DNA from: Escherichia coli
GTDB lineage: Bacteria; Pseudomonadota; Gammaproteobacteria; Enterobacterales; Enterobacteriaceae
Direction: 5' to 3' (one strand)
DNA length: 64,000 nucleotides
NCBI RefSeq assembly: GCF_003334305.1
Contig: NZ_QOWS01000001.1
Both the position numbers and the translations under genes were made by a program. The notes beneath the pieces were generated by a model. It searched no databases and was not told where the DNA came from. It saw nothing but the letters and a program-made list of their open reading frames with translations. This document shows, in pieces, positions 11,100 through 22,505 of the stretch (positions are counted from its first letter, which is position 1; the number at the start of each line of letters is the position of its first letter).

Positions 11100-12536
11100 A
11101 TGGCGCAGTCGAAACTCTATCCAGTTGTGATGGCAGGTGGCTCCGGTAGCCGCTTATGGCCGCTTTCCCGCGTACTTTACCCCAAGCAGTTTTTATGCCT
11201 GAAAGGCGATCTCACCATGCTGCAAACCACCATCTGCCGCCTGAACGGCGTGGAGTGCGAAAGCCCGGTGGTGATTTGCAATGAGCAGCACCGCTTTATT
11301 GTCGCGGAACAGCTGCGCCAACTGAACAAACTCACCGAGAACATTATTCTCGAACCGGCAGGGCGTAATACTGCACCTGCCATTGCGCTGGCGGCGCTGG
11401 CGGCAAAACGTCATAGCCCGGAGAGCGACCCGTTAATGCTGGTATTGGCGGCGGATCATGTGATTGCCGATGAAGACGCGTTCCGTGCCGCCGTGCGTAA
11501 TGCCATGCCATATGCCGAAGCGGGCAAGCTGGTGACCTTCGGCATTGTGCCGGATCTACCAGAAACCGGTTATGGCTATATTCGTCGCGGTGAAGTGTCT
11601 GCGGGTGAGCAGGATACGGTGGCCTTTGAAGTGGCGCAGTTTGTCGAAAAACCAAATCTGGAAACCGCGCAGGCCTATGTGGCAAGCGGCGAATATTACT
11701 GGAACAGCGGCATGTTCCTGTTCCGCGCCGGACGCTATCTCGAAGAACTGAAAAAATATCGCCCGGATATTCTCGATGCCTGCGAAAAAGCGATGAGCGC
11801 CGTCGATCCGGATCTCGATTTTATTCGCGTGGATGAAGAAGCGTTTCTCGCCTGCCCGGAAGAGTCGGTGGATTACGCGGTCATGGAACGTACGGCAGAT
11901 GCCGTTGTGGTACCGATGGATGCGGGCTGGAGCGATGTCGGTTCCTGGTCTTCATTATGGGAGATCAGCGCCCACACCGCCGAGGGCAACGTTTGCCACG
12001 GCGATGTAATTAATCACAAAACTGAAAACAGCTATGTGTACGCCGAATCTGGCCTGGTCACCACCGTCGGGGTGAAAGATCTGGTGGTGGTGCAGACCAA
12101 AGATGCGGTGCTGATTGCCGACCGTAACGCGGTGCAGGATGTGAAAAAAGTGGTCGAGCAGATCAAAGCCGATGGTCGCCATGAGCATCGGGTGCATCGC
12201 GAAGTCTATCGCCCGTGGGGCAAATATGACTCTATCGACGCAGGCGACCGCTACCAGGTGAAACGCATCACCGTGAAACCGGGCGAGGGCTTGTCGGTAC
12301 AGATGCACCATCACCGCGCGGAACACTGGGTGGTTGTCGCGGGAACGGCAAAAGTCACTATTGACGGTGATATCAAACTGCTTGGTGAAAACGAGTCCAT
12401 TTATATTCCGCTGGGGGCGACGCACTGCCTGGAAAACCCGGGGAAAATTCCGCTCGATTTAATTGAAGTGCGCTCCGGCTCTTATCTCGAAGAGGATGAT
12501 GTGGTGCGCTTCGCGGATCGCTACGGACGGGTGTAA
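11100..12536 (+). CDS. cpsB: Mannose-1-phosphate guanylyltransferase (colanic acid copy)
   Basis: 478 aa ORF, N-terminal [11 protein letters not shown] nucleotidyltransferase motif, C-terminal cupin domain. Confidence 0.95.
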
Positions 12537-19715: not shown

Positions 19716-21110
19716 ATGCCATTTAAAAAACTCTCCCGACGCACCTTCCTGACGGCAAGCTCCGCGCTTGCCTTCCTCCATACCCCTTTCGCTCGCGCAC
19801 TTCCCGCCCGACAAAGCGTTAACATTAACGACTACAACCCACACGACTGGATCGCCTCATTTAAACAAGCCTTCGGTGAAGGGCAAACGGTCGTCGTGCC
19901 TGCCGGATTGGTTTGCGACAATATCAACACCGGCATCTTCATTCCTCCTGGCAAAACGTTACACATCCTTGGAAGCCTGCGCGGCAACGGCAGAGGGCGA
20001 TTTGTCTTACAGGACGGTAGCCAGGTGACAGGGGAGGAGGGCGGCAGTATGCATAACATCACCCTGGATGTGCGTGGCTCTGACTGCACCATCAAAGGGC
20101 TGGCGATGAGCGGCTTTGGCCCGGTAACGCAGATTTATATCGGCGGCAAAAACAAACGGGTCATGCGCAACCTGACCATCGATAACCTCACTGTCAGCCA
20201 CGCTAATTACGCCATCTTACGCCAGGGATTTCATAACCAGATAATCGGTGCCAACATCACCAATTGTAAGTTCAGCGACTTACAGGGCGATGCCATTGAA
20301 TGGAACGTGGCGATTAACGACCGTGATATTTTGATCTCCGACCATGTCATCGAGCGCATCAACTGTACTAACGGAAAAATCAATTGGGGCATTGGCATAG
20401 GCCTTGCGGGGAGTACTTATGATAATAATTACCCGGAAGATCAGGCAGTGAAAAACTTTGTCGTGGCGAATATCACGGGATCGGATTGTCGGCAGTTGAT
20501 CCATGTTGAAAATGGTAAACATTTTGTTATTCGTAATATCAAAGCCCGCAATATCACGCCGGATTTCAGTAAGAAAGCAGGTATTGATAACGCCACAGTC
20601 GCTATTTACGGTTGTGACAATTTCGTGATTGATAATATTGAAATGATTAATAGCGCCGGGATGTTAATCGGCTATGGGGTAATTAAAGGCAAATATCTCT
20701 CGATACCGCAAAATTTCCGAGTGAATAATATTCAACTGGATAATACCCACCTTGCTTACAAATTGCGCGGTATCCAAATCTCCGCCGGGAATGCTGTCTC
20801 CTTTGTGGCGCTGACTAACATTGAGATGAAGCGTGCGTCGCTTGAGCTACACAATAAACCGCAACACCTTTTTATGCGAAATATCAAGGTGATGCAGGAA
20901 TCCTCTGTTGGACCAGCATTGAGCATGAACTTCGACATGCGCAAAGACGTTCGCGGCGTTTTTATGGCAAAGCGTGAAACGCTGCTTTCACTCACGAATA
21001 TTCATGCCGTGAATGAAAAAGGGCAAAGCTCCGTCGATATCGACAGGATTAATCACCATATTGTTAATGTGGAAAAGATTAACTTTAGATTGCCGGAACG
21101 GAGGGAGTAG
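19716..21110 (+). CDS. wcaM: Colanic acid biosynthesis protein WcaM (secreted, beta-helix-like)
   Basis: 464 aa ORF with N-terminal signal-like sequence; last gene of wca operon. Confidence 0.9.
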
Positions 21111-21267
21111 ATTTGCGACCATTCATAAACTTACTGGATATAATGTTCTAAAAGATTATAATCCTTACGCTAACTGTTAAAGCTGGGGCTGGGCAGCATT
21201 GACTACTCAGGGAAGGTACTCATCTTTATCTTGTGTTTCTTACGTAACAACCAGACTAAAGTGATTT

Positions 21268-22263
21268 ATGAACGATAACGTTTTGCTCATAGGAGCTTCC
21301 GGATTCGTAGGAACCCGACTACTTGAAACGGCAATTGCTGACTTTAATATCAAGAACCTGGACAAACAGCAGAGCCATTTTTATCCAGAAATTACACAGA
21401 TTGGCGATGTTCGCGATCAACAGGCACTCGACCAGGCGTTAGCTGGTTTTGACACTGTTGTACTGCTGGCAGCGGAACATCGCGATGATGTCAGCCCTAC
21501 TTCTCTCTATTATGATGTCAATGTTCAGGGTACCCGCAACGTGCTGGCAGCCATGGAAAAAAATGGCGTTAAAAATATCATCTTTACCAGTTCCGTTGCT
21601 GTTTATGGTTTGAACAAACACAATCCTGACGAAAACCATCCACACGATCCTTTCAACCACTACGGCAAAAGTAAGTGGCAGGCAGAGGAAGTGCTGCGTG
21701 AATGGTATAACAAAGCACCAACAGAACGTTCATTAACTATCATCCGTCCTACCGTTATCTTCGGTGAACGCAACCGCGGTAACGTCTATAACTTGCTGAA
21801 ACAGATCGCTGGCGGCAAGTTTATGATGGTGGGTGCAGGAACTAACTATAAGTCCATGGCTTATGTTGGAAACATTGTTGAGTTTATCAAGTACAAACTG
21901 AAGAATGTTGCCGCAGGTTATGAGGTTTATAACTACGTTGATAAGCCAGATCTGAACATGAACCAGTTGGTTGCGGAAGTTGAACAAAGCCTGAACAAAA
22001 AGATCCCTTCTATGCACTTGCCTTACCCACTAGGAATGCTGGGTGGATATTGCTTTGATATCCTGAGCAAAATTACGGGCAAAAAATACGCAGTCAGCTC
22101 TGTGCGCGTGAAAAAATTCTGCGCAACAACACAGTTTGACGCAACGAAAGTGCATTCTTCAGGTTTTGTGGCACCGTATACGCTGTCGCAAGGTCTGGAT
22201 CGAACTCTGCAGTATGAATTCGTCCATGCCAAAAAAGACGACATAACGTTTGTTTCTGAGTAA
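21268..22263 (+). CDS. gne: NAD-dependent UDP-N-acetylglucosamine 4-epimerase (Gne-type) encoded immediately upstream of galF
   Basis: 331 aa ORF, N-terminal GASGFVGTRLLE Rossmann motif, SDR epimerase family; position between wcaM and galF as in GalNAc-containing E. coli O types (from memory). Confidence 0.7.
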   Translation: MNDNVLLIGASGFVGTRLLETAIADFNIKNLDKQQSHFYPEITQIGDVRDQQALDQALAGFDTVVLLAAEHRDDVSPTSLYYDVNVQGTRNVLAAMEKNGVKNIIFTSSVAVYGLNKHNPDENHPHDPFNHYGKSKWQAEEVLREWYNKAPTERSLTIIRPTVIFGERNRGNVYNLLKQIAGGKFMMVGAGTNYKSMAYVGNIVEFIKYKLKNVAAGYEVYNYVDKPDLNMNQLVAEVEQSLNKKIPSMHLPYPLGMLGGYCFDILSKITGKKYAVSSVRVKKFCATTQFDATKVHSSGFVAPYTLSQGLDRTLQYEFVHAKKDDITFVSE

Positions 22264-22319
22264 TGCAGGCGAGTCAGAGAAAAAAGGACCAGGTTGGACT
22301 ACGATTATTCGGAAAGAGG

Positions 22320-22339
22320 TACTGATTAAATTATCAGTA
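22320..22339. promoter_or_regulatory. 20-bp palindrome TACTGATTAAATTATCAGTA (CTG-N10-CAG), LexA-box-like, in gne-galF intergenic region
   Basis: Read directly; arms TACTGAT / ATCAGTA. Confidence 0.3.
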
Positions 22340-22505
22340 TGCGGAATTCCGAGTAATCCGAGTAACCCAGATGCTGATGGTGTGTAGTGTTATCGTAAGG
22401 TTTAATCAAAGTTATGCGGAACTAAGCTTTGGTATATAGCCATAACGTTTGGCTAACCAATGGCAATAATTTACGCACTATCAGCCACTTAGAGGTAGGA
22501 AAAGA

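Follow-up and report, generated by a model that had tools for sequence, protein, structure and literature searches.

A perfect nine-nucleotide tandem repeat lies within a conserved, probably structured segment of the gnu-galF spacer of Escherichia coli

The stretch of Escherichia coli DNA that was analyzed, 64 kb in length and referred to below as the window, contains the genes wcaM, gnu, and galF, followed by a JUMPstart element (Table 1). The gnu and galF genes provide precursors for O-antigen and capsule synthesis. Often called gne, gnu is found directly upstream of galF where the O unit begins with GalNAc (PMC8657804, PMC4379981). In the spacer between the two genes the 9-mer TCCGAGTAA is repeated head to tail, giving the 18-nt sequence TCCGAGTAATCCGAGTAA. 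This perfect duplication was the starting observation of the original prediction, and it was confirmed by direct reading and by Tandem Repeats Finder (22348-22365: period 9, 2.0 copies, 100% matches). Its register is unique, with T flanking on the 5' side and C on the 3' side. The palindrome reported next to it, TACTGAT-TAAATT-ATCAGTA at 22320-22339, is likewise present on direct reading. The repeat had been assigned to the galF upstream region. This label is correct, as the repeat lies 141 nt before the galF ATG, but incomplete, as this intergenic position is also only 85 nt after the gnu stop codon.

Table 1. Genes, candidate signals, and predicted structural features of the gnu-galF locus (window coordinates).
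Feature	Coordinates	Strand	Basis or description
wcaM	19716-21110		ORF; RefSeq annotation at loci of identical or nearly identical sequence
Sigma-70-like promoter candidate upstream of gnu, TGGATA-16-TATAAT	21135-21162	+	Best promoter-like site in the scan of 20900-23800
gnu, 331-aa GlcNAc-PP-Und 4-epimerase	21268-22263	+	ORF; RefSeq annotation at loci of identical or nearly identical sequence; PMC8657804
Final 9 nt of gnu	22255-22263	+	TCTGAGTAA
gnu-galF spacer, 242 bp	22264-22505		
Hairpin A, imperfect palindrome/stem-loop, ~70 nt	22292-22367	+	RNA fold, covariance model, cross-genus compensatory changes
Apical stem-loop of hairpin A (the palindrome 22320-22339)	22319-22340	+	Loop TAAATT 22327-22332; TACTG-N10-CAGTA
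Hypervariable 3' side of the hairpin A internal loop	22340-22347	+	TGCGGAAT, TGTGGATT, TGTTGATT, TACGGATT, or GATGGATT
9-mer unit 1 (TCCGAGTAA)	22348-22356	+	Invariant TCCGA core and 4-nt covarying segment of the hairpin A 3' arm
9-mer unit 2 (TCCGAGTAA)	22357-22365	+	Homologous to TCTGAR of other genera; partial pairing with 22292-22300
Stem B 5' arm	22373-22387	+	GCTGATGGTGTGTAG; as RNA GCUGAUGGUGUGUAG
Stem B 3' arm	22471-22485	+	TTACGCACTATCAGC; as RNA UUACGCACUAUCAGC; ends 20 nt before the galF ATG
galF, 297 aa	22506-23399	+	ORF; RefSeq annotation at loci of identical or nearly identical sequence
JUMPstart element (RF01707)	23658-23696		Rfam match, 56.7 bits

The window contains three occurrences of the 9-mer (8951, 22348, and 22357), compared with 0.28 expected. 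Dinucleotide-preserving shuffles of the 64-kb window contain 0.26 perfect period-9 tandem duplications per shuffled window, and 23.5% of the shuffles have at least one. One such duplication per 64 kb is within chance. The real window has four, at 11385, 22348, 32555, and 53926, and this class of duplication is enriched in the real sequence relative to the shuffles. The units at 11385, 32555, and 53926 are internally repetitive, unlike the unit at 22348.

We found nothing in the literature on galF promoters or transcription start sites in gnu-positive E. coli. The wcaM-galF spacer of strain K-12 shows homology only in approximately 15 nt after wcaM and approximately 30 nt before galF. Because the K-12 spacer is not homologous beyond these ends, promoter data from K-12 are not transferable to the gnu-galF spacer. 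A consensus scan of 22150-22650 identified no sigma-70-like promoter, and no intrinsic terminator was found in the same region; a wider scan, of 20900-23800, found neither promoter-like nor terminator-like sites in the spacer. Manual inspection of hexamers in the spacer revealed weak candidates only. The hairpin described below does not have the form of a Rho-independent terminator, that is, a GC-rich stem and then a U tract, and is followed by CCCAGATGC. The promoter-like motif upstream of gnu is kept in the wcaM-gnu spacers of other genera. A promoter-like site upstream of gnu only, with none in the spacer, suggests that gnu and galF are co-transcribed from the former. A small ORF starting at 22371 (MLMVCSVIV...) is open in the length variants of the spacer, but its C-terminus is wholly altered in them, and we treated it as a chance ORF.

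The spacer is present in 1,314 of 5,426 complete E. coli genomes, O157:H7 and O55:H7 among them, once per genome; megablast and sensitive blastn gave identical counts. A repeated element of the REP/BIME, ERIC, or MITE type was rejected, as the spacer is single-copy even by sensitive blastn. A comparison of 9-mer copy number across E. coli genomes had been proposed with the original prediction, and it showed two units to be nearly universal (more than 99% of the 1,314 genomes). An exact 41-mer comprising both units and the right flank matched at 100% identity in 1,266 genomes, two of these being partial matches from one-copy strains. Thus, approximately 1,264 genomes (~96%) have the exact two-copy form, and approximately 46 carry some difference within the 41-mer. 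A one-copy query aligns without gaps (105 bases to 105 bases) in four genomes only (0.3%), namely, CUVET21-37, WWCOL-315, CP61_Sichuan, and 2017.10.01CC; direct alignment demonstrates a clean 9-bp absence in these genomes, on two clearly different haplotypes. Three-copy alleles were not found among the 1,314 genomes, and in no genome did the designed three-copy query align better than it does in a two-copy genome. Copy number thus varies between strains, with the one-copy state on two unrelated haplotypes, but the site is nearly invariant and is no hot spot. The frequent variation among several states that characterizes variable-number tandem repeats was not seen in this set.

Metagenomic contigs agree with the genome survey. 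Two perfect units are present in 29 of 30 contigs; in the remaining one, L022, TCCGAGTAA is followed by TCTGAATAA. The flank variant of the CUVET haplotype (GTTGATT) occurs with two copies in three metagenome contigs, so that the CUVET one-copy allele is best regarded as a recent deletion. A scan of the whole collection with the 20-nt palindrome returned only E. albertii and four chance matches in unrelated bacteria. Because they served as exact search anchors, AGATGCTGATGGTGTGTAGTGTT in the metagenome loci and the palindrome in E. albertii owe part of their invariance to ascertainment. Larger length changes affect other parts of the spacer. An 11-bp deletion was seen in two sampled alleles of a class of approximately 145 genomes (the class size is inferred from the 90-95% identity band), and a 51-bp deletion is fixed in E. 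albertii-like alleles. These indels indicate that the spacing between the repeat and galF is not tightly held.

Comparison with other genera places the repeat in a wider context. Gnu orthologs with 82-89% identity and the wcaM-gnu-galF synteny are found in nine other lineages, represented by eight named genera (Pseudocitrobacter, Enterobacter hormaechei, Pseudescherichia vulneris, Trabulsiella, Kluyvera, Kosakonia, Cedecea, and Cronobacter) and one metagenome contig. At the homologous place, these nine lineages carry the layout CT(G/A)CGA-N4-TCGGAAA-(variable apex)-TTTCCGA-N4-TCTGA(G/A). The variable apex is 31-32 nt long in seven lineages and 24, 30, or 43 nt long in the remainder. The position of unit 2 is occupied by TCTGGATCA, TCTGGGTCA, TCTGAGTCA, or, in Cedecea, TCTGAGTAA; in E. 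albertii it is TCTAAATAA.

This layout has the properties of a conserved stem-loop with compensatory substitutions. The N4 segments pair in 30 of 44 within-genome cells; permuting the partners among genomes gives 20.4 +/- 3.1 (P = 0.0017). In an alignment of 10 sequences, 90.6% of cells are paired, compared with 83.7 +/- 1.9 in shuffles, and the covariation score is 0.224 versus 0.120; none of 500 shuffles reaches the observed value in either case. Four pairs have changed on both sides, and sliding the partner by 1-3 columns, as a control, leaves 23-62% of cells paired. All these cross-genus figures come from a small sample of 10-11 related sequences, and the shuffles ignore phylogeny. The stem fits poorly in Kosakonia, Cronobacter, and the metagenome contig L054. 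Within Escherichia alleles the stems never vary, so that no covariation signal exists inside the genus. A covariance model of the stem-loop, hereinafter hairpin A, matches 22296-22365 with 79 bits as its sole match in the window. It also matches the one-copy alleles, which were excluded from its building, with 60 and 56 bits. The model has no match at the loci of K-12, Salmonella gnu-galF, Mixta, and Pluralibacter. The idea of a hairpin travelling with gnu was rejected, as it is absent from Mixta and Pluralibacter loci in which galF does not follow gnu, and also from a Salmonella gnu-galF locus with a 129-nt spacer.

Predicted RNA folding agrees with this comparison. Hairpin A has a folding energy of -29.1 kcal/mol (z -4.96). 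The plus-strand RNA 22264-22520 as a whole has -74.5 kcal/mol, far below the -54.2 +/- 4.1 of shuffled sequences (z -4.96). In the main stem (22303-22315 with 22346-22358), GAUUAUUCGGAA (22303-22314) pairs with UUCCGAGUAAUC (22347-22358) to form a 12-bp outer stem. Its 3' partner consists of unit 1 and flanking bases: the TCCGA core of the unit pairs with TCGGA at 22309-22313, and its GTAA pairs with TTAT at 22305-22308. The base of the hairpin is extended by pairing of 22292-22300 with 22361-22367, in which unit 2 pairs partly with ACU and GGUU. The apical palindrome is invariant in Escherichia alleles and is replaced by unrelated sequence in other genera, and no part of the spacer varies more than the adjacent internal-loop segment 22340-22347. 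The one-copy alleles retain hairpin A, with -23.5 and -23.2 kcal/mol. No Rfam family covers the 9-mer region; cmscan at E <= 1 over 21000-24500 reported only JUMPstart and a spurious snoR9.

The second predicted element is stem B, and together the two account for the folding energy of the spacer. Stem B encloses the segment in which the 11-bp and 51-bp deletions occur and is kept in all three length variants. At the homologous position, all 15 of its 15 pairs are formed in E. coli, E. albertii, and Pseudocitrobacter, and 13 of 15 in Trabulsiella and Cedecea. Comparison of the arms shows that three positions in Pseudocitrobacter are altered on both sides relative to E. coli. In Kluyvera, the stem is part of the minimum-free-energy fold; in E. 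hormaechei, P. vulneris, and Kosakonia it is absent. Where stem B occurs, the distance from TTCCG to it is 26-28 nt, which argues that unit 2 is not an insertion. The minus strand of the spacer folds less well (-58.4 kcal/mol, z -3.35). It is 16 kcal/mol less stable than the plus strand, a gap explained by G-U pairs. The greater stability of the plus strand and the lack of a detected terminator between gnu and galF provide indirect support for a plus-strand RNA.

These comparisons bear on the origin of the perfect repeat. The occurrence of the same layout in nine other lineages indicates that the 18-nt length is ancestral, and the layout would be older than the divergence of Escherichia from genera such as Enterobacter, Kluyvera, and Cedecea. 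Unit 2 appears to descend from the conserved TCTGAR motif. The units are the non-identical TCCGAGTAA and TCTAAATAA in the type strain of E. albertii, and likewise in one E. coli strain whose allele resembles that of E. albertii. The perfect repeat is thus, as judged from the alignment, a refinement specific to the main lineage of E. coli, and the one-copy alleles appear to be derived deletions. In the midpoint-rooted neighbor-joining tree, built from the spacer with 600 nt each of gnu and galF, the E. albertii-like clade is outermost and the CP61 one-copy allele branches next, followed by the main two-copy clade, in which the CUVET one-copy allele is nested. The likely ancestral state is an imperfect TCYGA-N4-TCYGA repeat, located in the hairpin's 3' strand and with a mirror counterpart in the 5' strand; in the main E. 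coli lineage it would have become a perfect 9 + 9 repeat. Two routes can be envisaged. The first consists of a short conversion or of one or two transitions, most clearly T to C at the third base of unit 2, which falls in an internal loop. The second is loss of one unit followed by re-duplication, which the position of CP61 in the tree allows. Once perfect, the repeat would now and then lose one unit by slipped mispairing, and this seems to have happened at least twice.

We consider it likely that the two TCCGAGTAA units form the lower part of the 3' strand in the conserved hairpin A, which would belong to a structured intercistronic RNA, and that the repeat has no separate function. Apart from its part in the stem, the repeat probably does nothing of its own. 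In this scenario, gnu and galF would be carried on one transcript starting at the promoter-like site 5' of gnu. The spacer RNA would fold into hairpin A and the long-range stem B, the latter just upstream of the galF ribosome-binding site. The structured segment could then serve as an intercistronic processing, stability, or translation-tuning element. A role at the DNA level, for example, binding of a protein to both arms, may fit too: hairpin A also folds on the minus strand (z -4.65), the sequence of the arms (TCGGAAA/TTTCCGA, TCTGA) is strongly conserved, and the apex keeps a nearly constant length of 31-32 nt.

A more ambitious reading, which we regard as possible but rather unlikely, makes the whole spacer a previously undescribed, conserved, two-domain cis-acting RNA leader that controls galF post-transcriptionally. 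One domain would be hairpin A, whose TCGGAAA/TTTCCGA arms are invariant and whose internal loop is conserved; the other would be the 15-bp stem B. Control might be exerted, for example, through regulated RNase processing, protein binding, or ligand-dependent refolding. In the last case, the two identical 9-mers could be alternative partners of one 5' arm.

The structural reading competes with a simple slippage scar, in which a single ancestral TCCGAGTAA was tandemly duplicated in an E. coli ancestor, outside any structural or functional context. The perfect identity of the units and the existence of one-copy alleles speak for it, as does the CP61-type one-copy allele, whose branching between the E. 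albertii-like and the main two-copy clades permits loss followed by re-duplication. Such an origin predicts relatives that are shorter by one unit and have no homolog of unit 2. Instead, no unit is missing from the other genera or from E. albertii, and what stands in second place there is a homolog of TCTGAR, not a duplicate of unit 1. Two-copy alleles surround the CUVET one-copy allele in the tree, and its haplotype also occurs with both units. Both units are part of a conserved covarying stem-loop. We think that a neutral scar is an unlikely source of the repeat. The slippage invoked in the original prediction is upheld insofar as unit loss does occur, as in the one-copy haplotype with its two-copy metagenome twin; the 18-nt stretch itself, however, is no insertion made by duplication.

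Another explanation treats TCCGA and TCTGA, spaced by 9 bp, as half-sites of a DNA operator for a dimeric galF regulator, either RcsB-type (FixJ/NarL family) or another. The copy number or spacing of the 9-mers would then matter for the putative binding. TCCGA forms the end of the Salmonella rcsA site, and the consensus of the RcsB box is TN(G/A)GA-N4-TC(T/C)NA (PMC7913699). In Klebsiella pneumoniae, an RcsAB box, TAAGATTATTCTCA, precedes galF at -119 to -107 relative to a transcription start that is itself 61 nt before the ATG (PMC3569464); its distance to galF is similar to that of the 9-mers. On the minus strand, the ancestral TCAGA-N4-TCGGA fits all specified positions but one, and pairing alone would not require the degree of conservation seen in the arm sequence and in the 31-32 nt spacing. 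However, the site is a direct repeat of one half-site and not a pseudo-palindrome, with one specified position mismatched on either strand, and by our estimate a spacer is expected to contain about one chance match to so loose a consensus with one mismatch. With the change from TCTGA to TCCGA, the main E. coli allele departs further from the consensus, compensatory changes in N4 are not explained by a protein that ignores N4, and scans of the spacer did not reveal a recognizable downstream promoter. Taken together, these observations make an operator quite doubtful.

A further rival is the interpretation given in the original prediction, that a variable-number tandem repeat tunes promoter spacing and so makes galF expression differ between strains. 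Copy number is indeed polymorphic, with one or two units, and a 9-bp change would rotate upstream elements by approximately 0.86 helical turn. However, two units are present in nearly all of the 1,314 genomes and three in none, two copies are too few for high-frequency slippage, and larger indels in the spacer are far more common or fixed in a lineage. The repeat is intergenic, outside any coding frame, and no pair of promoter-like hexamers was found in 22150-22650; the spacer as a whole contains no detected sigma-70-like promoter or terminator element. A site that is almost invariant and lies outside any detected promoter element comes close to refuting this interpretation by its own terms. 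We regard the promoter-spacing idea as largely refuted and its remaining chance as slight.

Equally hard to credit is a LexA (SOS) operator at the palindrome TACTG-N10-CAGTA, with the 9-mers in the transcript or promoter under its control: the CTG-N10-CAG is perfect, with TA flanks and an AT-rich spacer, and the site is invariant across Escherichia alleles, but A and T stand where the conserved CTGT/ACAG bases are expected, the apex is unrelated in other genera, no promoter overlaps it, and no link between LexA and galF was found in the literature. Its heterology index, calculated with a matrix of 18 sites (Table 4 of PMC3009722), is a marginal 10.55: weak known sites reach up to 12.8 in leave-one-out scoring, but chance matches in the window score about the same (10.31 and 10.68), and the genuine sbmC box at 62668 is far lower (2.39). 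A Fur box at the palindrome was rejected, with 8 of 19 matches by manual alignment.

The repeat as originally posed matters little, being essentially fixed, with no promoter found for it to retune. Of wider interest is the unannotated, strongly folding, conserved element between gnu and galF, present in approximately one-quarter of E. coli genomes and in several enterobacterial genera. If it acts as RNA, it would add an undescribed layer of control over the supply of UDP-glucose and GalNAc-initiated O-antigens. The locus also illustrates how an older, imperfect repeat in a palindrome can be refined into a perfect tandem duplication without an insertion.

Among known systems, the predicted hairpin A most resembles intercistronic mRNA stem-loops, such as RNase III/RNase E processing hairpins and REP-type 3' stabilizers. 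It shares with them a long interrupted stem (12 + 8 bp with an internal loop), a place between co-oriented genes with no terminator or promoter between them, a z-score of approximately -5, and a stem kept by compensatory changes while the apex varies. Unlike REP, BIME, and ERIC elements, it is single-copy and locus-specific. It differs from stabilizer hairpins in that its arm sequence and apex length are more conserved than needed, and it belongs to no Rfam family.

Other resemblances are partial. With slipped-strand VNTR and contingency loci the site shares a perfect head-to-tail 9-bp repeat and exact loss of a unit, independently on two haplotypes. Here, by contrast, only one or two copies occur, variants amount to 0.3%, the repeat is outside any ORF or recognizable promoter, and the two-unit length is ancestral. 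The RcsAB/RcsB box of K. pneumoniae, as compared by sequence, stands at a similar distance 5' of galF, and the E. coli pentamers fit TC(T/C)NA at 9 bp from start to start; unlike the half-sites of that box, they are direct rather than inverted, always have one mismatch, and are not followed by a recognizable promoter. Finally, JUMPstart/ops (RF01707) is also a conserved non-coding element of polysaccharide gene clusters, and one is present in the same window. Its position is downstream of galF, its sequence is different, and Rfam matches it, unlike the 9-mer region, which lies upstream of the same gene.

The segment just upstream of galF is enclosed by a long-range stem (stem B, see the table), which is retained in all Escherichia length variants of the gnu-galF spacer; the 11-bp and 51-bp deletion polymorphisms both fall within the enclosed segment. 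Outside the genus, Pseudocitrobacter, Trabulsiella, Cedecea, and Kluyvera keep stem B, several of its pairs being altered on both sides, but it is absent from E. hormaechei, P. vulneris, and Kosakonia. A short ORF in the same region stays open in both the 11-bp and the 51-bp deletion alleles, and its C-terminus differs each time. It is probably a chance occurrence.

Features located in the window in and around the gnu-galF region and farther downstream
Feature	Position	Description
Sigma-70-like promoter candidate	21135-21162	TGGATA-16-TATAAT, 10/12 matches; wcaM-gnu spacer
Short ORF MLMVCSVIVRFNQSYAELSFGI	22371-22439	22 aa; start within the invariant block that follows the 9-mer repeat
Stem B	22373-22387 paired with 22471-22485	Long-range stem, 15 bp; 3' end 20 nt upstream of the galF ATG
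JUMPstart element	23658-23696	RF01707, 56.7 bits; downstream of galF
Strong LexA box TACTGTATATAAAAACAGTG	62668-62687	Heterology index 2.39

Polymorphism in the spacer is highest in the 8-nt segment at 22340-22347, between the palindrome and the first unit of the 9-mer repeat, for which at least six variants are observed. This segment falls within a predicted internal loop of hairpin A, the stem-loop that holds both repeat units, and in the allele present in the window it gives rise to an EcoRI site within GGAATTCC. At the level of the whole spacer, E. coli 23CRST032 and the E. albertii type strain NBRC 107761 carry essentially the same allele, each having the 51-bp deletion and, as its second unit, TCTAAATAA. 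This likeness is consistent with exchange of the gnu-galF region between E. coli and E. albertii.

Motifs similar to the 9-mer units are also observed nearby. The last nine nucleotides of gnu (22255-22263, TCT GAG TAA) coincide with the repeat unit at 8 of 9 positions and are identical to the inferred ancestral second unit, the TCTGAR-type motif conserved in other genera. Together with the preceding bases, the gnu end (TTTCTGAGTAA) agrees with TTTCCGAGTAA of the O157-type alleles at 10 of 11 positions. Such likeness could have arisen by chance or by local conversion among three similar motifs. Three further perfect period-9 tandem duplications occur in the window, GCGCTGGCG x2, GATTGATTT x2, and GATGATGGT x2 (at 11385, 32555, and 53926, respectively), all three with internally repetitive units.

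Upstream of gnu, the promoter-candidate motif (CTGGATAT...TTATAAT) is kept in Pseudocitrobacter, Trabulsiella, Kluyvera, and others. Approximately 14 nt following the wcaM stop codon (ATTTGCGACCATTC, 21111-21124) are common to the gnu-positive strains and K-12, which diverge directly afterwards. The gnu presence/absence polymorphism has one of its boundaries here. The shared stretch loosely resembles the CT(G/A)CGA-N4-TTC 5' arm of hairpin A. On the other side of galF, the window contains a JUMPstart element, which is expected at the beginning of an O-antigen gene cluster.

The palindrome at 22320-22339, the apical stem of hairpin A, has the LexA-box form TACTG-N10-CAGTA. Its heterology index of 10.55 is no better than that of chance matches within the window, and outside Escherichia the palindrome sequence is not retained. 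The strong LexA box at 62668-62687 is situated 15 nt upstream of an ORF of 157 aa (62702-63175), which we take from its sequence to be SbmC/GyrI; the upstream 390-aa ORF resembles DacD. This box is identical to the published sbmC box at 19 of 20 positions.
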